A stretch of DNA of 64,000 nt, taken from the NCBI GenBank assembly GCA_033664045.1, contig GCA_033664045.1_3674.1, one strand, 5' to 3'. Every line of letters begins with the position of its first letter. Position 1 is the first letter of the stretch. The notes below the pieces were generated by a model. That model was not told where the DNA came from and made no database searches. It was given only the letters and a program-made list of their open reading frames with translations. Shown in pieces: positions 841-63,602 of the stretch. The position numbers were made by a program, and so were the translations under genes. This DNA comes from a phage.

Positions 841-1009
841 ACTGCACCTCCGGCTTGTTTGTTATCGATATGGAGAATAATACTTCGCGAGGTGGAAGAT
901 GTCAAGATTAATTTTAAGCAATTTGAGAGGGTATTTTATTCAGGGGGGTAATCACATAGGGTATGGCAATTTATGAAGGCACAGGCCTCTTTTGAGGCCT
1001 TAAAATCGA

Positions 1010-3209: not shown

Positions 3210-3655
3210 AACAGGTATAGCTCCTTATGAAAGTAGTCTTTTAATTTCTCACTGAGAAACTTCTTGATACCTTCCTCTAAAGTGTTTTCGATGTAGTCCA
3301 GCTTAACTGCTTCGATGGACATATCATAGATCGCCAGCTCTAAGCTGTCAAGTCCCATCATAGCATGAACCATAAGATTTTCATCTTCAGATACATTCAA
3401 GGGACTTCCTATAACATCTGTAGGTAGGATAGTCTCCCAATTATTCTGGGGAGTAGTTCTCCCGCCATCCACTTTCCGGCGCAGTTCGAAGGTGTTCTTA
3501 GTGTAGAACACTTCATAAGAAACGATACGACTGTCACTCTCATAATAAACGAAGTTCAGGTAGGAGCCTAGCCGCAGTCGGCAAACTTCTACCCCAAACC
3601 ATTGTTTCTTATAGGAATTCAGGCTAATGCTGTCGCATTCACGTTTGCTCAACAC
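3206..3655 (-). CDS. Hypothetical protein
   Basis: Track ORF; 4-nt overlap with neighbour. Confidence 0.5.
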   Translation of the reverse strand: MLSKRECDSISLNSYKKQWFGVEVCRLRLGSYLNFVYYESDSRIVSYEVFYTKNTFELRRKVDGGRTTPQNNWETILPTDVIGSPLNVSEDENLMVHAMMGLDSLELAIYDMSIEAVKLDYIENTLEEGIKKFLSEKLKDYFHKELYLL

Positions 3656-17361: not shown

Positions 17362-17844
17362 ATGTCAGATTTTATGTGGAAAGTAGGTTACGCAGCTCCT
17401 GAAATGTGTGAGGCTTGCTTTGTGAAAATAGGCCGCGAGGATATCGACAAAGTGATCCTTAAGTTTCGTGATGTAGCTGTGATCGGCAACCGAGTGCTTA
17501 AGCACTTAAAGAATCTGAAGCTCACCAAAAAGAAGTTCTTCGGACTTTTCGAAGAGAAAGTTGATGCTTGGACCCATTGCATTCAGGAAGCTAAATCTCA
17601 CTACAGTGCTATCGTTACCCCAGAACGGGTAGCCAAGATGGAAGGACTCATCAACAGCACAGAGTTTGAGTGCCTAAAGGCTGCCCTTGATAGTTATCCG
17701 AAATGCCTCAAGCACTTGGACAAGTATGTGGAAAAGGATGGGGAAATGTATCTCACCCTGGACGCATATTATGAGATGCAAGAAATTTTAAATTTAGATT
17801 TGACATTGGTATCCACCGAGTATACAATAGGTATCCGGGTTTAA
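17362..17844 (+). CDS. Hypothetical protein
   Basis: AGGAGA site; terminator follows. Confidence 0.5.
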   Translation: MSDFMWKVGYAAPEMCEACFVKIGREDIDKVILKFRDVAVIGNRVLKHLKNLKLTKKKFFGLFEEKVDAWTHCIQEAKSHYSAIVTPERVAKMEGLINSTEFECLKAALDSYPKCLKHLDKYVEKDGEMYLTLDAYYEMQEILNLDLTLVSTEYTIGIRV

Positions 17845-19321: not shown

Positions 19322-21389
19322 GTTTATATCCTCTGCATATAGCCGCTATGGAGAACCCAACCCGGTTGCAACAAGATACAAAAGTGGGGGCAGTATGAAA
19401 CGAGACTATCGTGATGAAAAAGAGGTTGAAACTGTAGAGACTGTTTTAGAAAATACTAAAATTGTCCCTGTTCCACAACAGAATATAGGGCTAATGGCTG
19501 CTCAATATTTTGGTGTGCGATCAGCATTATCCCAAGAAGATGGTGTGACAGTCACTGCAACATATTTTCCATATTATGACCGCTACGGAAATCTGTCTGG
19601 TTTCAAAAAACGTGATTGGTCTAAGCCGAAAGAGCAGAAAGGACACTGGTCTGTAGTAGGCATCGTAAAGGCTAACTCCCAGATGTTTGGTCAAAAGCTG
19701 TGTGCATCTTCCAACAACCGTAAGCAGATTAACGTTTGTGAGGGGGAAGGTGATGTTATTGCAGCATGGCAGGCTGCATATCAGATACAAGTAAAAGGGA
19801 TTCTCACCAACGCTAAAGCCCCGGCAAAGGTGAAGCAGTGGGCTAAAGAGGTCCAAGACGGGATCGACGCAGTTATCAACGGTGGTGATCTGGCAGGAAA
19901 ACCCTGCCTGCCTTTTGTTGGAATTAACTGTGGATGTGCAAACGCAGTAGATACTTTTGCAAACAATGAGAAGTTTATCCGTAGCTATGGAACAGTTGTG
20001 CTGGCAATGGATAACGATGCAGCTAACGAGGTAGAGAAGCAAAAACACGTCATCAAAGGTGTTGAGGCCACGCACAATATCGCAGCATTTTTGATGGCTG
20101 ATAACGTTTACCACGTAGAATACCCCGGTGAAGTAAACGACCCTGATGGTGTAAAAGATATCCGAGACATGCTGAAGGCTAAAAAGCTGGAAGATATTGT
20201 CAACATGTTCCGGCATCCTGTTAAATATGTACCTGATGCTGTGTCGGATTTAGAAGACTTCTCTATCGAGTCTTTGCGGAAAAAGACTTCCAACGGGGTA
20301 GATATCAGTGCAGAGTTCCCAAAACTGCAAAAAATGCTAAAAGGCTTGCACAAAGGGACACTCGTAATGCTTACAGGTCCATCAGGCGGCGGTAAAACAA
20401 CCGTGGCTAAAAAACTGGAACACTGTATTGCAAGATACCTAATGGACCCGACATGCCCGAAGGCCGATGACTATGAAGAGGATGATCGTCTATGTATGAT
20501 CCATCTTGAGGAGGATCCAGAGGAAGCAATTAACTCCTTGTATGCAAACCAGTTAGGGTTTGATGTTAAAGAGTTTGTTGAAGATCCTAGCCAGTTTTTA
20601 ACTGATCAAGAACACGCAGAGATTCACCAATCATGGGCAAAAGCTGGAAAAATCAAAGTGTTCAAACATTTCGGGTCTATTCCGGTGGACGAGTTGATTA
20701 CCAAGCTTAAGCAAATGGTTTGCCTGTACCATTGTCGTTATATTGTGCTGGATCACCTGTCCATGGTAATTTCAGGGCTTAATGTTAAGGATGAGCGAAA
20801 AGAACTGGACATGGCTATGACCCAACTGGCTGCGTTTTGTAAGCAGTTTAACGTGTTTATCTTGGTGATCGCTCACCTCAAACGTACAGAGATTGTGCCT
20901 CCTAAAGACAAGGATGGTAACCCGTTACCTTTCTGGTATCCTGTGCGAAAAGAGAATTTGCGAGGATCGGCTGGGCTTGAACAGTTGAGTTGGGTAGTCA
21001 TAGGTGTCGAGGCCGAAGAAATGGTGGATCGTTCTCGTGGGCGTGTCCGTTTAGTAGGTCTTAAAAACCGTCCAGCAAAAACATTGGGTATTGCAGACAC
21101 TTTGGTTATGGACCCACATACAGGTAAGTTCCATGATGCCAGTAATTGGTACTGGGACAAAGAAATGCAAATGTTTACAGATGGAGAAGGTGGGGAGGTT
21201 GTTTGGAGACCTCAGGCTATGTTTGAGGATCAGGAGCATGCAGTTGTAGAAACACCTATGGGCAAGGTTGTGGCTGATAAGGTTGTAACTCCTACTGTTA
21301 AGCCTGTTGACACGCAGGAAGACCTCCAGTACGATGATCCGTCCTCTGACCATGTTCCTGGTTTTGAGGATGATGAAACACCTTTTTAA
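19311..21389 (+). CDS. Primase-helicase (T7 gp4-like)
   Basis: TOPRIM-like EGEGDVIAAW / AMDNDAANE; helicase motifs LTGPSGGGKTT, YIVLDHLSMV, LVIAHLKR. Confidence 0.85.
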   Translation: MGNKFISSAYSRYGEPNPVATRYKSGGSMKRDYRDEKEVETVETVLENTKIVPVPQQNIGLMAAQYFGVRSALSQEDGVTVTATYFPYYDRYGNLSGFKKRDWSKPKEQKGHWSVVGIVKANSQMFGQKLCASSNNRKQINVCEGEGDVIAAWQAAYQIQVKGILTNAKAPAKVKQWAKEVQDGIDAVINGGDLAGKPCLPFVGINCGCANAVDTFANNEKFIRSYGTVVLAMDNDAANEVEKQKHVIKGVEATHNIAAFLMADNVYHVEYPGEVNDPDGVKDIRDMLKAKKLEDIVNMFRHPVKYVPDAVSDLEDFSIESLRKKTSNGVDISAEFPKLQKMLKGLHKGTLVMLTGPSGGGKTTVAKKLEHCIARYLMDPTCPKADDYEEDDRLCMIHLEEDPEEAINSLYANQLGFDVKEFVEDPSQFLTDQEHAEIHQSWAKAGKIKVFKHFGSIPVDELITKLKQMVCLYHCRYIVLDHLSMVISGLNVKDERKELDMAMTQLAAFCKQFNVFILVIAHLKRTEIVPPKDKDGNPLPFWYPVRKENLRGSAGLEQLSWVVIGVEAEEMVDRSRGRVRLVGLKNRPAKTLGIADTLVMDPHTGKFHDASNWYWDKEMQMFTDGEGGEVVWRPQAMFEDQEHAVVETPMGKVVADKVVTPTVKPVDTQEDLQYDDPSSDHVPGFEDDETPF

Positions 21390-21447: not shown

Positions 21448-24225
21448 ATGAGTATGTATAGCTTCGATTTTGAGGCCTCTGGGCTTTTGGAAGATCCAGA
21501 CCTTTATTATCACTGCGGCCTGTTTAAAGCGTTGAATAAGAACCGTTTTATGCTGTTCCTTCCTCTGAATGACCGCACACACTACTCCGAGGAGGATATA
21601 GAGAAGGCTAAGAACTTTATTCTGGCAAAGAAAACTCTTTATAAGGATTTTGAAGTTCGCATAGCAGATTTTTCGGAGTTGGAAGGGTGGCTTACAGGAA
21701 ATTCTGACTGGTCACCCACAGCTTTGAACTGCCACAACTGCTACAGCTACGACTTTATGCTGATGGAGAGATTGTCCGGTATTCATTTTGATATGTTCCG
21801 TGATCCTAAGTGTATGGGGACTATCAACGACCACCAGGTTAATCTGTTTGATACATTGGCTATGAGCCGAATTTTGTGGCCTGACCGACCTTTGCCAAAA
21901 GGTTGTCCAGACGCTGTATTCAACCCGGTTACTAAGAAAATGCAGCCTGTTGGTCCTCACGGCCTTATGGCATGGGGCTACGCTCTTGGTAACCAGAAAG
22001 TTCAAATTGATGACTGGCGCGATCTTCCGTTGTGGAAGTATGTGGATCGTGTATTCGAGGACGTTATCATCCAGGAGCTGCTCTGGAAAGAGCTGGTAGC
22101 GGAATCAAAAGGTGTATTCTACGGCAAATCTGACATGCAGAACTTTATGTACGATCCTGCCAAAGAGAAGCCGAAAGGATTCAAGAAGATCACCTGGAAG
22201 AACGCATTACGTCGAGGCATGCTGCAGCACTTCCTGATGGAGCTGCAGGCCCGTCAGGGCGTATACTTCGACATAGATGGAGCTATTGCTTTACGTGACC
22301 GTTGCGATGCGTGGATGAAAGAAATCGCTGATCGTGTTGAACCACAACTGCCTTTAAAAGAGCTGTCAATGTCTCAGCGGCCCAAGTTCCCTGAAAAGCC
22401 GTTTAACCAAGACGGGACAATCTCCAATAATGGTTGGAAATGGTTAAAAGATAAGCTTGGCTATCCTGTAGACATGAGCGCTTTAGAGTTCAAAGCCCCG
22501 CCTAAGAGAGCATTTACCTCTACAGGAGATGTCAGCAAGATGGGGATAAAATGGTGTGAAGAGATGGGATGCAAAGACCCCGATAAGATGGCTGATTTCT
22601 TGAGAGGCTATATTAAGGGCACTTCCACACCACACCCTTTGCCTAAAGAGCTGATGGATCAGGCAATAAGTGATCTACAGCAGAAGCGAATGCCGGACTG
22701 CAAGATACCTATGAAAATCAGCAACCAGGACGACATTAAGCGATACCTGATCAGTGCTGGCTGGCTTCCGACAATGTGGAGAACTAAGGATGTAACTAAA
22801 GACAGCAAGAAGAAAGCTTTACCTGATGCAGATGTTGATGCACGAGTATATGCATATATGGACGAGCTTTTGGAGTCAGAGTATTGTGACCTAATTATCA
22901 ACTTCTGGAACAAAACTGATGCTAAGTTCCAGACAACCGTGCACAAGTTCCGAAGCTTTCCTAACTCCGAAAGGATTAAAAAGGAAGTATTCGGGAAAAT
23001 ACGTAGAAAAGCTAGGGCACTTATTACTTCTCCGCAACTGAAAGATACGTTTGGACACCTATGCCCAAATCTTGAAAAATTGAACGGAGAGATGGCTAAA
23101 GATATCGTCTTGTGGTTATCATTGCGAAACCGCAGATCGGTCCTTGATCCAATCAAGGAGGATAAGGTTGATACTGGTCTTCTTAATCACCCACGCTTGA
23201 AGATTGACCATAAGCTTCCTGCTAAAAGTTCTGGATTAACAAACACTTCCCGACAGAAACACAGTATTTGTGCAAACATGCCTAAACCATCTCCTAAAGT
23301 GGTTATGGGTAAAGAGATGCGTAGTCTGTGGGGTGTTCCTCCAGGATACTTTGAGATCGGTATTGACGGGTCCAACTTAGAGCAGCTTATCGGGGCTTGG
23401 GGTGCCTTTGAGTTCGACAACGGCTTGTATTATGATGTTGTAAGTAACGGGGACGCACACCAAAACAATGCTGAGGCATATACAAAAGTAGCAGGCAGAG
23501 AGGTGTCTCGTAACGACGGTAAACCTATCACGTATGGGGTTATGTACGGGGCACAAAAAGATAAAGTTGCAGACATGCTGGATATCTCTCCAGAGTTGGG
23601 GCAAAGGGTAATCGATGCGCTTTGGGATGCCAACCCAGGTCTTAAGGGGCGTAAAGAGGATCTGGAGAAATTCTGGGAAGCAACTGGTAAGAAGTTTATC
23701 TACTCTTTTGATGGTCATGCCATCTGGACCCGATCTAAACACTCTTTACTTAATGCATACCAACAAAATGGCGGTGCATCGTTGTGTGATTTAGTTGGGA
23801 TACTCATGCACCACCAAATGGTGAGGCGTGGGTGGTACGATGAAGGTGTTCGTCGTATTATCTATTACCATGACGAATATCAGCTTCAAGTACCTGACAC
23901 ACCGAAGTATAAGACTGTGTACACCTTCGACACAATTGAAGAATTGGAAGCATTTAAGGCAGAGCAGGAGGCCAAACTTCATGTGTTCGACGGTCATAAG
24001 TACAAAAAGGCACGCAAGGATGAAAACGGAAACGAAGTGGTTGACAGAGACGGAAACACGGTGTACGATCCTATCTTGAACGATGACGGAAAGCTTGAAC
24101 TTATCTGGAGTCCTGTGGGCGAAATGGTGGTACATTGCTTCTGGCAAGCTTCTAAAATGATGGGAGTCCCGTTCCAGATCACAGGTGAATACTTGTGTGG
24201 TCGTAATTGGGGTGATTGTCACTAA
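21448..24225 (+). CDS. Family A DNA polymerase with 3'-5' exonuclease domain
   Basis: Exo I-like FDFEASGL; motif B RNDGKPITYGVMYG; motif C YYHDEYQLQV; 925 aa. Confidence 0.9.
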   Translation: MSMYSFDFEASGLLEDPDLYYHCGLFKALNKNRFMLFLPLNDRTHYSEEDIEKAKNFILAKKTLYKDFEVRIADFSELEGWLTGNSDWSPTALNCHNCYSYDFMLMERLSGIHFDMFRDPKCMGTINDHQVNLFDTLAMSRILWPDRPLPKGCPDAVFNPVTKKMQPVGPHGLMAWGYALGNQKVQIDDWRDLPLWKYVDRVFEDVIIQELLWKELVAESKGVFYGKSDMQNFMYDPAKEKPKGFKKITWKNALRRGMLQHFLMELQARQGVYFDIDGAIALRDRCDAWMKEIADRVEPQLPLKELSMSQRPKFPEKPFNQDGTISNNGWKWLKDKLGYPVDMSALEFKAPPKRAFTSTGDVSKMGIKWCEEMGCKDPDKMADFLRGYIKGTSTPHPLPKELMDQAISDLQQKRMPDCKIPMKISNQDDIKRYLISAGWLPTMWRTKDVTKDSKKKALPDADVDARVYAYMDELLESEYCDLIINFWNKTDAKFQTTVHKFRSFPNSERIKKEVFGKIRRKARALITSPQLKDTFGHLCPNLEKLNGEMAKDIVLWLSLRNRRSVLDPIKEDKVDTGLLNHPRLKIDHKLPAKSSGLTNTSRQKHSICANMPKPSPKVVMGKEMRSLWGVPPGYFEIGIDGSNLEQLIGAWGAFEFDNGLYYDVVSNGDAHQNNAEAYTKVAGREVSRNDGKPITYGVMYGAQKDKVADMLDISPELGQRVIDALWDANPGLKGRKEDLEKFWEATGKKFIYSFDGHAIWTRSKHSLLNAYQQNGGASLCDLVGILMHHQMVRRGWYDEGVRRIIYYHDEYQLQVPDTPKYKTVYTFDTIEELEAFKAEQEAKLHVFDGHKYKKARKDENGNEVVDRDGNTVYDPILNDDGKLELIWSPVGEMVVHCFWQASKMMGVPFQITGEYLCGRNWGDCH

Positions 24226-24274: not shown

Positions 24275-24559
24275 ATGGTAGTAGAGCCAACAAAAACATT
24301 TACATCCATGACCATTCCTGTTATTATGCAGGTGGAGTGTGTTCAGGTATCTCAAGTGTGGCCTGGCACCAAAATCCCAACAGGGCCTGATTTCTTTCAG
24401 GTTGGGAAAGTGTACAATGTCTGGAAGGCACCAGATTGTTACCCTTTCATTAAAGATGACCGTGGGATGCTGTGGTATCTTGGAAATGACTTGACACTGC
24501 ACCTTGGGAATGCTATTATTGCAGTATTCAGACTTAACAAGAAGGAGACCGATCAATGA
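24275..24559 (+). CDS. Hypothetical protein (paralog set, KDxxGxxWF motif)
   Basis: AGAGGAG site; IKDDRGMLWYL motif shared with the next two genes. Confidence 0.5.
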   Translation: MVVEPTKTFTSMTIPVIMQVECVQVSQVWPGTKIPTGPDFFQVGKVYNVWKAPDCYPFIKDDRGMLWYLGNDLTLHLGNAIIAVFRLNKKETDQ

Positions 24560-25690: not shown

Positions 25691-25719
25691 TTGACAACAG
25701 TGATAGGGCCTAATATAAT
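25691..25719 (+). promoter_or_regulatory. Sigma70 consensus promoter
   Basis: TTGACA (25691-25696), 17-bp spacer, TATAAT (25714-25719). Confidence 0.65.
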
Positions 25720-49443: not shown

Positions 49444-49839
49444 TTACTGAAACAGTGCGGATAAATTACCTTCTGGTGGGAACTTATCTGCCAAAAACGG
49501 TGTTAGCACAGTAGCCTTCTGAAGATCTGGGGTCCACTCGTTGTTCAGAACATCCCAGTAGTACGCAATGTTGCTGTGTGGGTGCCGCATTACGAACTTT
49601 TTCCCTTCGTAGTCATCTGAAACCTCTACAGAAGAAATAACAACAGAATCTTCAAGGGTTTCTTCATAGAAAGATCCACCTTCAAATTTCCAACGAGATG
49701 CAAGAGCCCCTGCCTTGAACGCTGCAGATAACGGACTGTCGGCAAGAACATACATTTCTTGCACTCTGTCGCTGCGATCTTTGCTTCTTACGTTGTATAC
49801 AGTATCTGAGCTATACTCAACACGGTATAGGCTTACCAT
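49444..49839 (-). CDS. Hypothetical protein (paralog of 51649..52047)
   Basis: Shares the …FV(I/M)xHPxS…YWxxxxxxWTP pattern with 51649..52047. Confidence 0.5.
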   Translation of the reverse strand: MVSLYRVEYSSDTVYNVRSKDRSDRVQEMYVLADSPLSAAFKAGALASRWKFEGGSFYEETLEDSVVISSVEVSDDYEGKKFVMRHPHSNIAYYWDVLNNEWTPDLQKATVLTPFLADKFPPEGNLSALFQ

Positions 49840-50198
49840 TACCGCACCTCCTCAATAACTTCCACATCTGAACCTACCACAAATGCAAAAGGACAGGTTT
49901 CATGAAAGATATCCGGATCGCCGCCAAGCTTGCTAACAATTTCTCCACCACTAATAAACACAAGCTCACCGATATTCATCAGATTGCTGAAATAGTACCC
50001 ATAATGATTAAAGAATGCAGCAGGGTCAGGTAGACTAGTGGCCTCAAGCACTACATCGGTTGAGGTTACTTTCTTATCATAACCTCTCGCCTTTTGAGAT
50101 GCAAGATCTGCAGAATCCTCAGGAGACCGGAGATGCACAGGAATTGTTTCACCAATAAAGCGTACTTTCATATTATCACCCAACAACCATAGCTTCAA
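49839..50198 (-). CDS. Hypothetical protein
   Basis: Track ORF; true start may be the internal MKVRFIG at 50171. Confidence 0.45.
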   Translation of the reverse strand: MKLWLLGDNMKVRFIGETIPVHLRSPEDSADLASQKARGYDKKVTSTDVVLEATSLPDPAAFFNHYGYYFSNLMNIGELVFISGGEIVSKLGGDPDIFHETCPFAFVVGSDVEVIEEVR

Positions 50199-50439
50199 AA
50201 GGAGTCATGAACGAATAAACGGCATCATCATCTGCTTCAGGGAATGCTCCCAAAGACTTCATGTCTGAGCCCTTGACAAATACAAGGTTTTGATCAAAAG
50301 CTTCTTGGGGGTCAATCCGATACATATTTCGTAGAATATCGCTTACCTCCTCATCAAGAGGTGAGTATGCTGTGCACGTTTTTCCGATCAAGCTTTGAGA
50401 ATCAGGGTAGCCACCTGAAGTTTTAAAATAAACAATCAT
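50176..50439 (-). CDS. Hypothetical protein (loose family member; KGSDMKSLGA)
   Basis: Track ORF. Confidence 0.5.
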   Translation of the reverse strand: MIVYFKTSGGYPDSQSLIGKTCTAYSPLDEEVSDILRNMYRIDPQEAFDQNLVFVKGSDMKSLGAFPEADDDAVYSFMTPFEAMVVG

Positions 50440-50533: not shown

Positions 50534-50803
50534 TTATTCCTCTACAATCTCATACACATCAGGAGTTACAATCAACTCTTCTCCGTTACCCGGTGCAACA
50601 AACACCACCATTCCTTCAGGTGTGTGCTTTTTAGCCATCTCGATAACATCTTCTCGCAGAGCTGGCTCCATCAGATCAAAACCTTCACCCAGGGCATCAC
50701 GAACCACCTTCATATAGTCAACTGGTTGTGCTTCGACAATCATGCCTTCAACCAGTCCACAGTTTTTGTCTGCCAGCTCAGTTTTGAATAATTTAATTTT
50801 CAT
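50534..50803 (-). CDS. Hypothetical protein (MKIKLF… acidic-tail family)
   Basis: Track ORF. Confidence 0.5.
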   Translation of the reverse strand: MKIKLFKTELADKNCGLVEGMIVEAQPVDYMKVVRDALGEGFDLMEPALREDVIEMAKKHTPEGMVVFVAPGNGEELIVTPDVYEIVEE

Positions 50804-50940
50804 TTAGAGGTCTCCTCAATTATTTGATATTAATAGCCGTAACCTAACACATTAACTACAACTGCGATTGCAAACATAATTTCAAAGCATGCAATCTCTA
50901 CATTTGGGACTAATTTCTTAATCACGCCCATTGTAGCACC

Positions 50941-51258
50941 TCATTCTCCAAAGTCAATCTTTACTTTGCCTTTCCTCTTACCTTTCTTTCCACCACATTT
51001 AGCCAGCTGACGTGCTGCAACATCTACCATACGGTCAGTTGCCTCGTAAGCATCACCTCCTTTAGCCTTGGCAATAACTTCTTTTCCAGAATTGTCAAAA
51101 ATGAACGCCATAACTTCCTGGCGATCATTTTCAACTTTTACACTCACACGTGCATGATTTACAGAAGGATGTAGACGCTCCAGTTTTGACATTTTTTGGG
51201 AAATGAAAGACACCATGCCTTCGGTGATTTCTACGTTGCCAGTGATCTCAATTTGCAT
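50941..51258 (-). CDS. hpf: Ribosome hibernation promoting factor (HPF/RaiA family)
   Basis: MQIEITGNVEITEGM…KLERL…VSVKVE…AKGGDAYEATD…AARQLAK aligns along its length with E. coli HPF (MQLNITGNNVEITEAL…KLEQY…VVLKVE…AEGQDMYAAID…LARQLTK); basic C-terminal extension. Confidence 0.8.
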   Translation of the reverse strand: MQIEITGNVEITEGMVSFISQKMSKLERLHPSVNHARVSVKVENDRQEVMAFIFDNSGKEVIAKAKGGDAYEATDRMVDVAARQLAKCGGKKGKRKGKVKIDFGE

Positions 51259-51340
51259 AACGTGTTCCTTTTAAAGAAGAGGGAACCAAACCCTCTTTGA
51301 AAACAATGATACTAAATCTGAAGCGTTGTGTCAACAGTTT

Positions 51341-51648: not shown

Positions 51649-52047
51649 TCAGCTTATTTTTTCTTCAACAACCCCGTAGCTCGGGGCAGAGTCAAGAGCT
51701 TTCTGGTTTAAAAGTGGTGTAGCAGAATCTGCAAACGGTGTCCAGGTTTTTGTTCTGGCATTCCAGTAATGCTTCACTCTGGAATCAGGATGCACTATAA
51801 CAAAAACTTTTTCACTTGTCAACACATTAATTTCTTCCACACCCCTGCTGATAATTTCTCCGTCATATCCCCCGGTCTGGTATCCTTCGTACCAGGTTCT
51901 TGCATAGGCATAGCCAGCCTGCCAGCATGCAGCCTCCTCCGAGGTGGAGACTACGTAGAAGTCTTTCTCAAATTCTGGGATACGCCCTTGCTTTACGCTC
52001 CAAGCTCCGCGAATTTTCATTGTAACTTTGAACAGTTTATTTTTCAC
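51649..52047 (-). CDS. Hypothetical protein (paralog of 49444..49839)
   Basis: Track ORF. Confidence 0.5.
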   Translation of the reverse strand: MKNKLFKVTMKIRGAWSVKQGRIPEFEKDFYVVSTSEEAACWQAGYAYARTWYEGYQTGGYDGEIISRGVEEINVLTSEKVFVIVHPDSRVKHYWNARTKTWTPFADSATPLLNQKALDSAPSYGVVEEKIS

Positions 52048-52059
52048 AACGGTTACCCA

Positions 52060-52314
52060 TCACAGCTCTACAATATCTGCATCTGACCCTGCCCCAAAGG
52101 CATAATATGACTCTTCCCCGAAATAATATTCCGGTGCACCAGCCGCGATCAGGTCTGATCCCAAGATGAACACCACATTGTGGCCTACATAGCTGTGATT
52201 TTGCCGCACAGGATCATCCCACGGCAACCCTTCGAAGTATACAGCAGGTACGATCTTTCCCTTCAGGAATGATTGCCCCAAGTAGACGTTAGAGTCAAGA
52301 ATTTTAACCTTCAT
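52060..52314 (-). CDS. Hypothetical protein (MKVKIL…GSDLIAAGA family)
   Basis: MKVKILDSNVYLGQ…GSDLIAAGAPE. Confidence 0.55.
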   Translation of the reverse strand: MKVKILDSNVYLGQSFLKGKIVPAVYFEGLPWDDPVRQNHSYVGHNVVFILGSDLIAAGAPEYYFGEESYYAFGAGSDADIVEL

Positions 52315-52528
52315 GATCGTCCTCCACTACCTCTACATCCTCGCCTAGGGCAAAGTTGTAATTCCACTGACTGTCAAAGCATTCCTGAGATGCGCCAGCG
52401 GCAATAAGATCTGACCCTTTTATTTTTAAAAGGTCAGGGTAATCTTCATTAGGAACAGCGGTAAACACTTTTCCAACCAAAGGCTCTTGACCAATATAGA
52501 AGTTTGAATCTAAAACTTTAACTTTCAT
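52304..52528 (-). CDS. Hypothetical protein (MKVKVL…GSDLIAAGA family)
   Basis: MKVKVLDSNFYIGQ…GSDLIAAGASQ. Confidence 0.55.
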   Translation of the reverse strand: MKVKVLDSNFYIGQEPLVGKVFTAVPNEDYPDLLKIKGSDLIAAGASQECFDSQWNYNFALGEDVEVVEDDHEG

Positions 52529-57743: not shown

Positions 57744-58793
57744 TTAAGCTTCTTCGACAATTCCTGCACCCAGGATTTTTTCATTGAGCTCTTTTGCTGT
57801 TTTAATGATATTGTCCATCAGACGCTTGCGGGTCTTATCTTTCACCTTAATCTCTTCACCGCCGTTCAGAGTAGTCTTCAATTGAGACAGAATATCCTGA
57901 AGTTCGACGACAGAGAATCGCTGCAGATCTTCTGAAGTAATTTCACCCAAGGCGATCCGGACGGTCTCGCCACTTTCCATCTGCAGATTCAGGAACACAG
58001 TGTGAACATCGCCTTTCGTACCATTTGCTTTTGCAGACTCAACAGCATGAACCAGCTCGTCCAGAGATGTGCATTGGTGAATCTCTGGCAGGCCTGCTTC
58101 GCCTAGCACACCTTCTTCATCACTTTTTGCCAAAAGCTTTTTCGGTTTCTGTCCATTCTGAATGCGCTGAATGTTTTCATCGTCCAGAATGATAGCACCA
58201 GTTCTAGATGCCAGCTCTTCTCCATCTAACCACACTTCACCGCCAGCTGTAATGGATGCGATCTCATCTTCTGTTAGCACCCCACCGTAGTATTTTTCAA
58301 TCAGGCGTTCAAAACGTTTCTTCCAGTAGTTGATCTGAGTATTCATGTTCACACCGTTACCATAGGTGCCACCTTGATAGTAGTGGAACATAAACTCTGT
58401 GTCCGGAGCCACAGTGCGTTCTTTGCAACCCAGCCATAGGATTGTTCCAGCAGAGCAGCACATACCTTCAGCATGTGCAACAACGCTTGCCTGAGACTCG
58501 CGGAATGCCTGCAGATAAGCCATTGCAATGTGCACGCAACCACCAGGACTATTGATGATCACCCGAATGCTTTCTTCAGGCTGAGCCATACGGATCGTCT
58601 GCAGACGAGACATATGATCTTGTAAGTCTTCCAGATCGTCGATATAAAGAACGTGGTCAACAACAGGTGTTGGGTAGCTGTATGTCTCCATAATACCACC
58701 CGGCATACCAAACATTTTATTACTCATAGGTTCAAAACCGTTCTGTTTTTCTTTCATACCGTGTACCATGGTGCTGCGAGGTGTTAAATTCAT
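57744..58793 (-). CDS. ClpP-like serine peptidase with C-terminal extension
   Basis: VIINSPGGCV, GMCCSAGT, FMFHYY resemble the ClpP core; AAGGA site. Confidence 0.7.
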   Translation of the reverse strand: MNLTPRSTMVHGMKEKQNGFEPMSNKMFGMPGGIMETYSYPTPVVDHVLYIDDLEDLQDHMSRLQTIRMAQPEESIRVIINSPGGCVHIAMAYLQAFRESQASVVAHAEGMCCSAGTILWLGCKERTVAPDTEFMFHYYQGGTYGNGVNMNTQINYWKKRFERLIEKYYGGVLTEDEIASITAGGEVWLDGEELASRTGAIILDDENIQRIQNGQKPKKLLAKSDEEGVLGEAGLPEIHQCTSLDELVHAVESAKANGTKGDVHTVFLNLQMESGETVRIALGEITSEDLQRFSVVELQDILSQLKTTLNGGEEIKVKDKTRKRLMDNIIKTAKELNEKILGAGIVEEA

Positions 58794-59164: not shown

Positions 59165-59267
59165 ACTATCTCCTTCTACTTGTCTTGTCCGATAATAATA
59201 TCTAAAGCTTACCTGTTTGTCAACAACTGTTTTAGATATTTAAGGGTGGAATAACCACCCTTCTGTA

Positions 59268-60056
59268 TTACTCGGAAACAGGGGTCCAAATATGATTTGC
59301 ACGATCCTCGATAAGATTGAGTGCAATCTGACGACCCAACCCGGAACGAACGACATCATCTGGACTATCAAAGCTGATCATTCCAACCTCAGGATCTGGA
59401 TGGCGAGTAAAGAAATCCGTCACCCATGCAAGGCCAGATTTACCAGGGATGTCACGTTGGCTATTATCGCCCATAATTACAAGGGTGGCCTGATCAGAGA
59501 TCCTTGTGATAATTGACAACATTTCTTCAGGGTTAGTTTGCTGTGCCTCGTCAATCAGGACAAAGCATCGCTCATCGAAACTACGACCACGAATGCTTTC
59601 AACTTCACAAATCTCGATACGGCTGTTCTGACCGTCTCCCAGCATTGCGGCAAAAGCACCTTTGCCAACACGACGACAAATAGTGTCCATCATACTACGA
59701 AGGTAAGGCCAAAGCTTCTGCATTGACGTTCCCGGTTTGTATCCGCTTGATTTTCCGGTCTGTACATAAGGACGTGCAACAATGATCTTATCAATCTCGT
59801 TCTTACGCAGAAGATCACCTGCATATGCAGATGCCATGAACGTCTTACCAGACCCAAACACACCGTTTACAATAATAATCTTACGTGACCCTAGATAATC
59901 AAGATACTTTTGCTGCTTCTTATTCATTGGTCGGAGAGCTGGAGCGGTGTGCTCTCGTTCGTCAGCAAATTTCTCAGCAGCCTTGCGCAAGCGATCAGAT
60001 TTGCGAGCCTCTCTAGCTTCATCACGCATGCGTTTTGTTTCTTTAGCTCGACCCAT
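59268..60056 (-). CDS. phoH: PhoH-like ATPase
   Basis: Walker A GVFGSGKT, Walker B VLIDEAQ; AAAGGAG site. Confidence 0.85.
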   Translation of the reverse strand: MGRAKETKRMRDEAREARKSDRLRKAAEKFADEREHTAPALRPMNKKQQKYLDYLGSRKIIIVNGVFGSGKTFMASAYAGDLLRKNEIDKIIVARPYVQTGKSSGYKPGTSMQKLWPYLRSMMDTICRRVGKGAFAAMLGDGQNSRIEICEVESIRGRSFDERCFVLIDEAQQTNPEEMLSIITRISDQATLVIMGDNSQRDIPGKSGLAWVTDFFTRHPDPEVGMISFDSPDDVVRSGLGRQIALNLIEDRANHIWTPVSE

Positions 60057-62300: not shown

Positions 62301-63602
62301 TTATTTACTCAACGGACAACAGTCTACATTCCCAACATGTTTAACACGTTCGATAACCTCTGCTTGTTTACCTGTGTTATACGGTCTACTGTTCGGGCTG
62401 GAGAGATAGCCAGACACTCTTCGGATCACTGAGATATATTGTTCATCGTGGCATCCACACGCAGGGCAGCAGAACCCTTTAGCTGTTGCACTGAACTCAC
62501 CAGAGAAACCACACTTAAGACATTTATCCACAGGTTGGTTAATACCAAAATACATAATGTGTTTATACCCGAAATCGACAAGGGCTTCCAAAGCATCCAA
62601 GTTGTTTTTCAGGTTAGGTGTTTCTATGTATCCAATGTTGCCGCCAGAAGAGATCATAGCAAAACCTTCCTCATACTTCCACTTATCAAAAGGCGAGCTG
62701 TTGATCCATACTGGCTGATGGAAACTGTTGGTGAGGTATTCATGCTCGTGCTTCAACACTTCTGGGTATTCACGATCCAGACAGGTTGCAGCTTTATAGC
62801 ATAAACTCTCAGAAGGTGTGCCGTACAAGCTAAATGCTAGTCCACTTTCCTTCTTATATCGATCACAAGCATCTTTCATATGCTGAAGGATTCCAAGAGC
62901 TAAAGCCTTGTCACCCTCTCTGCCCAAAATTTGGCAGGTTTCATACACACCAATATACCCAATACTGATGGAAGCGTACCCGTCATAGAAGAGTTTATCG
63001 ATACTCTCTTCAGGATCCAGGCGAGCAAGAGCTCCTTCACACCACATGATAGGGTTCTGCCCAGCCTTGGTGCCTTTCAAACGATTAACTCTTACAAGGT
63101 GAGCCTCATATGCCAAATCCAAGTATTCGTCAAGAACGGCAAAGAAATCAACACCTTCCGTCTTAGCTTTTGCCGCAATCATTGGCAGGTTAAGACTAAC
63201 AACCCCCAAGTTGAATCTGCCGAGGTATTTCTCCTCACCTGTTTCCAAGTCATTGTATTTGCTAAGAAAACTCCGGCAACCCATGCTCGTTACTTTGCCA
63301 TCTGTAGAGCCTGTCACTTTACGATTTAGTGGAACAGAAACAAAGTCAGGATAAATCCGCTCTGCAGAGCATTCCAGAGCTAATCGTTTCAAATCATAGT
63401 TAGGATCTCCAGGGTTCATGTTGACACCTTCTTCTAGGAAGAACAGCACTTTAGGGAACACAGGTGTGATACGTTCTTCACCAAGACCCATTTTGTGGAC
63501 TTTCAAGTAGTTTTTGGTAATCATTCTACCAAATACTGAGGTGTCCAGACCTAAACTTAATGTGATGAATGGAGTCTGCTGTCTCCTCCCCTGTGTTTCC
63601 AC
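62301..63602 (-). CDS. nrdD: Anaerobic ribonucleoside-triphosphate reductase, C-terminal portion only
   Basis: C-terminal zinc ribbon CLKCG…CPACGC and glycyl-radical motif RRVSGYLS; ORF begins at a GTG three codons after an in-frame stop and is shorter than a complete NrdD. Confidence 0.8.
   Translation of the reverse strand: METQGRRQQTPFITLSLGLDTSVFGRMITKNYLKVHKMGLGEERITPVFPKVLFFLEEGVNMNPGDPNYDLKRLALECSAERIYPDFVSVPLNRKVTGSTDGKVTSMGCRSFLSKYNDLETGEEKYLGRFNLGVVSLNLPMIAAKAKTEGVDFFAVLDEYLDLAYEAHLVRVNRLKGTKAGQNPIMWCEGALARLDPEESIDKLFYDGYASISIGYIGVYETCQILGREGDKALALGILQHMKDACDRYKKESGLAFSLYGTPSESLCYKAATCLDREYPEVLKHEHEYLTNSFHQPVWINSSPFDKWKYEEGFAMISSGGNIGYIETPNLKNNLDALEALVDFGYKHIMYFGINQPVDKCLKCGFSGEFSATAKGFCCPACGCHDEQYISVIRRVSGYLSSPNSRPYNTGKQAEVIERVKHVGNVDCCPLSK

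Follow-up and report, generated by a model that had tools for sequence, protein, structure and literature searches.

The window analysed here, a 64,000-nucleotide stretch of DNA, is phage DNA sharing about 96% nucleotide identity with rV5-like coliphages, and it carries on its minus strand a gene resembling hpf (50941..51258). The open reading frame stands exactly where the initial annotation had described a 105-residue protein aligning with bacterial HPF/RaiA: it runs from an ATG to a TGA stop codon (50941..50943), and its 105-amino-acid product begins with MQIEITGNVEIT and ends with GKKGKRKGKVKIDFGE. A Shine-Dalgarno-like AAGGA (51266..51270, minus strand), read from the sequence, lies 7 nt 5' of the ATG, and a ribosome-binding site is annotated at the equivalent position in the record of phage Murica. 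The 2.5 kb around the gene are 95-96% identical to rV5-like coliphages and are present in 119 phage records. The source phage is a Vequintavirus, an rV5-like coliphage, and the gene is the orthologue of rV5 ORF144/gp139 (YP_002003641, ABI79209).

The HPF homologue of rV5-type phages is already known, being annotated in more than 100 records and published in 2019 and 2020. In the rV5 genome record (NC_011041) the gene is ORF144/gp139 with the note 'similar to Klebsiella oxytoca probable sigma(54) modulation protein', and the 119 records label it variously as 'ribosome hibernation factor', 'sigma 54 modulation factor', 'ribosome-associated translation inhibitor RaiA' or 'hpf'. Mizuno et al. (2019, Nat Commun 10:752, PMC6375957) listed the 105-aa rV5 protein ABI79209 among virus-encoded ribosomal proteins, placed it among the gammaproteobacterial HPFs, and put forward the idea that the viral HPF, by competing with its cellular counterpart, might keep ribosome dimers from forming. 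After pBAD24-driven expression of the rV5 protein in E. coli NM522, its peptides were detected in the crude extract and were absent from sucrose-gradient 70S and 100S fractions isolated at high salt, and its expression had no discernible effect on 100S abundance (PMC6375957). The possible reasons given by those authors were a wrong growth phase, a real loss of binding, and dissociation in the salt washes (PMC6375957). The initial annotation had read the gene as acting on host ribosomes and had named a product without ribosome association as an outcome that would speak against this reading; such an outcome is, in part, what Mizuno et al. observed. The presence of hpf in rV5 phages is mentioned again, 'as already described', in a 2020 paper (PMC6969025). 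Our literature searches found no functional study of a Vequintavirus HPF after 2019 and, with Vequintavirus transcriptomics included, nothing on the timing of expression of the hpf homologue. Since the gene has been public from the rV5 genome record onwards, was tested in 2019 and is routinely annotated, its rediscovery adds nothing; the additions made here are an analysis of selection, an orthologue from a sister lineage, a map of contact residues, a set of tail variants and the rejection of a leader hairpin as a regulatory element.

The hpf homologue belongs to an extended cluster of small genes for non-structural proteins; the paper on the rV5 genome counts 88 ORFs, mainly small ones, in the surrounding block and gives the number of consensus promoters as 33 (PMC3606486). 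On the same strand lie genes for a Lon/ClpP-like ATP-dependent protease (57744..58793, phrog_5410), a PhoH-like phosphate-starvation-inducible protein (59268..60056, phrog_170) and the anaerobic ribonucleotide reductase NrdD (62301..63602, phrog_487), which are host-like stress and metabolic genes; the replication genes are on the opposite strand, and the 64-kb window contains no tRNA genes. The gene is flanked by two families of small minus-strand ORFs that are paralogous among themselves. One consists of ORFs of 131 aa (49444..49839) and 132 aa (51649..52047), which are 28% identical (E=4e-11). A second paralogous family comprises ORFs of 84 aa (52060..52314, minus strand) and 74 aa (52304..52528, minus strand), which are 42% identical (E=2e-17), and a weaker third member of 87 aa (50176..50439, minus strand; E=3e-4), with a GSDLIAAGA-like motif in common. 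None of these flanking paralogues has a Pfam match, and all are 'hypothetical' in rV5.

The presence of a second S30AE gene nearby was considered and rejected: an 89-aa ORF (50534..50803), two genes downstream of hpf, has no Pfam match, and the label 'sigma 54 modulation factor' placed on it in some public records is a shifted annotation. Several public records mislabel the hpf homologue itself as 'ATP-dependent protease La Type I'; the records bearing annotation errors are OR062525, OR062528, OR062530, MT884008-MT884010, KR698074, PQ510733 and the MN850xxx series. In addition, 18 records (MG065635-MG065690) carry the name 'Campylobacter phage' and list Campylobacter jejuni as host; across this region they match rV5-like coliphages at about 95% identity, and the host assignment seems doubtful, with contamination or mislabelling among the conceivable causes.

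The gene is preceded by a sigma-70-type promoter, TTGACA-17-TATCAT, at 51306..51334 (minus strand), which a consensus scan scored at 11/12. This site corresponds to the 'Sigma70-type promoter; P144' annotated in rV5 (NC_011041), it is also predicted by PhagePromoter in phage Gotham, and its -35 hexamer together with an AAACTG prefix (AAACTGTTGACACA) is conserved both in Vequintavirus and in the sister lineage described below. The initial annotation had credited the gene with a promoter of its own, and a strong one is indeed present, but 11 nt away from the range proposed: 51295..51323 takes in the -10 hexamer and part of the spacer and misses the -35 hexamer. The strict pattern TTGACA-N17-TAYNAT occurs nine times in the window versus 0.14 expected from shuffles. 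The other eight sites are at 877..905, 3323..3351, 17800..17828, 21307..21335, 24041..24069, 24491..24519, 25691..25719 and 59195..59223, and some of them are internal to long ORFs, the DNA polymerase gene for example. Judged from these motifs, the phage clearly appears to use consensus sigma-70 promoters, that at 51306..51334 among them, and the nine strict sites fit the genome-wide consensus sigma-70 promoters of the rV5 paper.

A 7-bp stem-loop of doubtful function, AAGAGGG-TTTGGTT-CCCTCTT (51277..51297, minus strand), separates the -10 hexamer from the Shine-Dalgarno sequence. The leader hairpin of the initial annotation thus exists as a stem, yet its predicted minimum free energy of -9.9 kcal/mol (z=-0.95) is equalled or bettered by 44 of 200 dinucleotide shuffles. 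Its GGG:CCC pairs are disrupted in two related loci (L009, L001), the hairpin is missing from the shorter leader of the sister lineage (L003/L005), and a search of the leader against Rfam returned no match. With a stability at shuffle level, no compensatory conservation, a sister lineage that does without it and no Rfam family, the hairpin was rejected as a regulatory element.

Family membership and fold of the window protein

A profile search against the HPF/RaiA family, which the initial annotation had proposed as a check, placed the window protein above the cut-offs of two family models. Pfam PF02482 (Ribosomal_S30AE) matched it with E=4.7e-13 and 50.1 bits against a cut-off of 23.7, residues 3-89 aligning with positions 1-84 of the 88-position profile, and NCBIfam TIGR00741 (HPF/YfiA family) was passed with 50.8 bits against a cut-off of 40.9; phrog_12469 matched with E=2.6e-66. 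Neither equivalog model was passed, the scores being 58.1 bits against a cut-off of 125 for NF007780 (HPF, E. coli YhbH type) and 20 bits against 158 for NF007654 (RaiA/YfiA). BLASTP gave 42% identity with E. coli HPF over residues 1-91 (residues 1-90 of the HPF query agree with the PDB alignment) and 25% with E. coli YfiA. A phmmer search of the PDB matched E. coli HPF 2rql with E=1.3e-12, and the best solved relatives are 2rql, 4v8h and 6h4n (E about 1e-12). By these comparisons the protein is nearer to short HPF than to RaiA, and the RefSeq name RaiA was rejected at the equivalog level (20 versus 158 bits). Long HPF of the Firmicutes type is characterized by a C-terminal dimerisation domain after a linker; the window protein, with a single Pfam domain in 105 residues and a tail of 16 residues predicted to be disordered, lacks such a domain.

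The AlphaFold2 model, built with 54 sequences, has a mean pLDDT of 81.7, and most 10-residue blocks of residues 1-80 lie at 86-92. Its predicted secondary structure has the order beta-alpha-beta-beta-beta-alpha, with strands at residues 2-7, 33-43, 46-55 and 60-67 and helices at residues 13-29 and 70-89, and the model together with Foldseek delimits a folded HPF domain of residues 1-89 (50992..51258, minus strand). The best Foldseek match in the PDB is V. cholerae HPF 4hei (TM 0.82/0.94, rmsd 0.9 A), followed by E. coli HPF 2rql and 6h4n, the last of which is a ribosome-bound HPF structure; every one of the top 36 PDB matches is an HPF, YfiA, pY or RafH chain. Because the profile scores, the identity to HPF and the match to solved folds all point to the HPF/YfiA family, we regard it as nearly certain that the window protein is an HPF-family homologue.

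Distribution, age and selection

A tblastn search with the window protein identified 119 phage records at 87-95% identity; the homologue is present in all 119 records that hold the flanking region, and in none of them is the domain's reading frame interrupted. When E. coli HPF served as the tblastn query, a detectable homologue was found in only 130 of 50,697 phage records, 119 of them Vequintavirus. The remaining matches are scattered, coming from XaC1 (a jumbo phage), one bacterial record and a handful of small contigs, and the BFVD adds phages GAP32 and PBECO4 at the level of fold. A word-indexed homologue search yielded five close relatives and a scan of IMG/VR two loci, so that the diversity described here was drawn from annotated phage records and an exhaustive HMMER search.

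A sister lineage of Vequintavirus-like phages (L003-L006, on Logan/ENA contigs of up to about 137 kb) is about 73-76% identical in local DNA over a third of 8 kb, and is absent from the phage collection searched. Its orthologue, P0004, has 103 aa and 63% identity and is found at the syntenic position, within a comparable series of small ORFs that share one strand. NCBI lists this protein under E. coli (EFM7019398.1, EMB7054210.1), which points to phage sequence within bacterial assemblies. Beyond the phage group, an exhaustive HMMER scan of 1.84 billion representatives found nothing more than 45% identical. A nearest non-phage relative at or below 45% identity argues for long residence in phages, and the hpf homologue is an old resident of this phage group. 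Recent capture from a host is unsupported, as the nearest non-phage relative is 45% and E. coli HPF 42% identical.

Across seven Vequintavirus copies dN/dS ranges from 0.01 to 0.27; the window copy and L002, for instance, are separated by 29 synonymous and 8 non-synonymous differences (dS 0.65, dN 0.033). These substitution patterns show strong purifying selection, which maintains the gene in every sequenced member of the genus. They bear directly on the idea that the gene is a passenger without function, acquired from a host by chance and kept without selective value. Such a passenger would be compatible with the lack of any reported phenotype and with the frameshifted tails of some isolates, but it is contradicted by dN/dS values well below 1, by a domain frame intact in 119 records, by the persistence of an orthologue and a conserved promoter in a lineage only about 75% identical in nucleotides, and by the long residence implied by a nearest non-phage relative no more than 45% identical. 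We consider it very improbable.

The ribosome-facing residues and the C-terminal tail

The window protein was aligned with 53 bacterial representatives and with E. coli HPF and YfiA, and ribosome contacts were taken from a 2025 cryo-EM preprint (10.1101/2025.10.07.680626). At the 23 most conserved columns of the family the phage protein keeps 18 residues, has one conservative change and replaces four. In E. coli numbering the replacements are E51 to M, M70 to A, K80 to V and K89 to G, three of the four being named ribosome contacts, and T53 (of the m2G966 motif) and H55 (which contacts the uS9 C-terminus) are both Phe. The conserved columns that are kept include K23, K26, R83, Q84, K87 and K91, and among the other named contacts K26, Q29 (now R), E60, V/H62 (now I), R83, K87 and K91 are kept; the retained contacts correspond to K25, R28, E60, I62, R83, Q84, K87 and K91 in phage numbering. 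E. coli HPF and YfiA share four identical basic residues that touch 16S rRNA, and three of these are R83, K87 and K91 (10.1101/2025.10.07.680626). The basic series of helix alpha-2 (K80, R83, K87, K91, K89) is preserved at R83, K87 and K91 and altered at K80, now Val, and at K89, now Gly. In the sister lineage these two positions are Thr and Ser, respectively, and Val occurs at position 80 in 6 of the 53 bacterial representatives. The MAFIFD segment is invariant among the Vequintavirus copies, and its F54 is shared with the sister lineage.

In this pattern the core of the fold is intact and most changes affect ribosome-facing residues, and such a contact face would fit either an altered or weaker mode of binding or a new target. 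A one-residue length polymorphism among isolates was also seen in the beta1-alpha1 loop (51235..51237 region, minus strand), which reads GNVEIT in the window, rV5 and most relatives and GNNVEIT, as in E. coli HPF, in Murica, A6-1 and V18. Residue 8, in this loop, is a 16S rRNA contact in some species (10.1101/2025.10.07.680626).

The altered contact face raises the alternative that the S30AE fold has been neofunctionalised and that the protein acts off the ribosome; its dsRBD-like fold and its basic tail would then serve a different ligand, for instance RNA of phage or host origin, a nucleotide signal of the kind captured by Acb4 sponges, or a host protein, the type of target that T7 Gp1.2 has. 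The fixation of family-atypical residues at named contacts (MAFIFD, with F54 also in the sister lineage) and the absence of ribosome association in the published experiment (PMC6375957) would be expected of such a protein. Weak Foldseek matches were obtained to T7 Gp1.2 (7u66_G, E=2e-3, TM 0.48) and SPO1 Acb4 (9e4w_N, E=1.8e-2, TM 0.48), and the authors of the Acb4 work report a structural similarity of Acb4 to V. cholerae HPF 4HEI. However, R83, Q84, L85, K87, K91, K23, K26 and R29 are kept, and the only cellular role known for these residues is contact with rRNA. The sequence similarity to HPF is strong, whereas the likeness to Acb4 and Gp1.2 is weak, lies at the level of fold, and is absent from a PDB sequence search at E<=10, in which 9e4w gave no match that would place the protein among the Acb4 nucleotide sponges. 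Moreover, the high-salt wash offers a trivial explanation of the negative ribosome result, as its authors acknowledge (PMC6375957). Taken together, departure from the ribosome is an improbable account of the protein, though a better one than that of a passenger.

Beyond the folded domain, residues 90-105 form a basic tail (50944..50991, minus strand) encoded by a purine-rich run. The Lys/Gly-rich character that the initial annotation ascribed to it is borne out, the tail having a net charge of +5 in 16 residues, compared with +1 in 6 for E. coli HPF and -4 in 24 for YfiA; the isoelectric point of the whole protein is 9.3, versus 6.5 for HPF and 5.95 for YfiA. AlphaFold2 predicts the tail to be disordered, with pLDDT below 50 for residues 91-100. 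The purine-rich run is a hotspot of indels and frameshifts among isolates (L010, L011, L009, L002): shorter forms occur in YN3 (103 aa) and L002 (104 aa), and frameshifted forms in Murica (99 aa) and APCEc02 (101 aa). The proteins of V18 and A6-1 have 106 aa, one added Asn restoring the GNNVEIT of E. coli HPF. The APCEc02-type variant recurs as P0003 in a Logan (public sequencing-run) assembly and may therefore be more than the sequencing error of a single record. The tail of the sister lineage differs in sequence and is also basic, and comparable short basic tails are present in a few bacterial homologues. Since the tail varies in length and frame and differs in the sister lineage, its last residues are not strictly required, and the tail is dispensable in some isolates.

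The 3' end of the gene adjoins a 33-aa hydrophobic ORF (rV5 ORF145/gp140; 50830..50931, minus strand), which follows hpf after 9 nt. A promoter-like TTGACT-16-TACAAT (50930..50957, minus strand) lies inside the last hpf codons (I-D-F), with its -10 hexamer overlapping the ATG of the 33-aa ORF, and PhagePromoter made a prediction at the matching place in phage Gotham. Given this site, the conserved 'KIDF' end of the tail might be constrained at the level of DNA.

Proposed function and comparison with known systems

The reading that we favour is that the phage protein binds idle ribosomes and parks them as 70S particles, and we put its probability at about 0.45 to 0.5. Host RNA polymerase would transcribe the hpf homologue during infection, the timing being suggested by the promoter type and the gene neighbourhood. 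By analogy with HPF and YfiA, the product would bind vacant, mRNA-free host 30S or 70S ribosomes in the channel of the decoding centre, through the retained basic residues of helices alpha-1 and alpha-2. The remodelled contacts (E51M, T53F, H55F, K80V, K89G) would probably make this binding weaker or more sensitive to salt, for which the basic tail might partly compensate by adding non-specific affinity for RNA. In the model the tail leaves helix alpha-2 where that of YfiA does, and would by analogy run toward the platform and the RMF site. [quoted passage not shown] Such parking could protect ribosomes as host mRNA disappears, independently of the host RMF/HPF dimerisation pathway.

Several lines of evidence are consistent with 70S parking: the family score, the HPF fold, the kept contacts, dN/dS, presence in 119 of 119 records, the sister orthologue and the conserved promoter. 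The unchanged 100S abundance of Mizuno et al. is as expected of a factor that does not dimerise ribosomes, and their negative mass-spectrometry result would be accounted for if the interaction is lost at high salt. Against it stand the peptides missing from 70S and 100S fractions in the sole direct test, the replacement of four conserved columns with Phe at T53 and H55, and a score of 58 versus 125 bits for the HPF equivalog. The tail is not homologous to that of YfiA and is opposite in charge, and it is truncated or frameshifted in some isolates, so that a mechanism dependent on the tail cannot hold for every member.

The same published result can be accommodated by an anti-hibernation decoy, an idea of Mizuno et al., in which the phage protein competes weakly or transiently with host HPF, RaiA or RMF for one ribosomal site and promotes no dimers, and the ribosomes of starved or stressed hosts stay available for phage mRNA or return to it faster. 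The remodelled contacts, with loss of K80 and K89, fit a lower affinity; the protein was not stably bound to ribosomes after the salt wash, and 100S particles did not increase (PMC6375957); and the basic tail exits the domain where the RMF-blocking tail of YfiA does. A weak binder would, however, need great abundance to out-compete the host factors, any occupant of the A/P-site channel blocks translation until it departs, and ribosome binding is assumed here just as it is for 70S parking. We regard the decoy as unlikely, though somewhat less so than a role off the ribosome.

A broader formulation is that the protein is a phage-adapted derivative, and not an unaltered host HPF, whose remodelled face (M50, F52, F54, V80, G89) and basic tail confer a different activity, which we advance tentatively as a possibility of rather less than even odds. 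It could be a low-affinity ribosome occupant that excludes RMF and either counters the hibernation imposed by the host or shields idle ribosomes against nucleases or defence toxins; alternatively, it could be an off-ribosome factor that has departed from the ribosome for a new RNA or nucleotide ligand. Whichever applies, a phage hibernation factor could in principle set whether host ribosomes are parked, protected or working, and control of ribosomes by a phage bears on how lytic phages fare when facing starved or dormant bacteria. The map of changed and kept residues, together with the tail variants, defines concrete mutants and conditions for functional testing of 70S parking and the other readings.

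Among known proteins, the closest to the window protein is rV5 gp139/ORF144, with 94% amino-acid identity, the same length of 105 aa, the same neighbours and the same annotated promoter P144; the two differ at six amino acids, which in the window copy are Q21, V33, H35, R46, G68 and R95. Short HPF of E. coli (YhbH; 2rql, 6h4n, 4v8h), which turns RMF-induced 90S dimers into 100S particles, is likewise a single S30AE domain of the same fold, 42% identical from residue 1. In contrast to it, the phage protein carries E51M, T53F, H55F, K80V and K89G at ribosome-contact positions, has a basic tail of 16 rather than 6 residues, and scores below the HPF equivalog cut-off, and promotion of 100S particles was not observed with the rV5 protein (PMC6375957). 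With E. coli YfiA/RaiA (protein Y) it shares an S30AE domain followed by a C-terminal extension past helix alpha-2, as well as the RefSeq name RaiA, but the identity is 25% and the tails are unrelated in sequence and charged +5 versus -4. Other phages also encode an S30AE fold, namely GAP32 of Cronobacter (K4F6Q6), PBECO4 of Escherichia (L7TII8) and XaC1 of Xanthomonas. These HPF-like proteins of jumbo phages differ in being only 20-26% identical in structural alignments and in having been missed by tblastn with the window protein at E<=1e-5, and the GAP32 protein was placed elsewhere in the tree by Mizuno et al. (PMC6375957); the HPF-like genes of the jumbo phages look like independent acquisitions.
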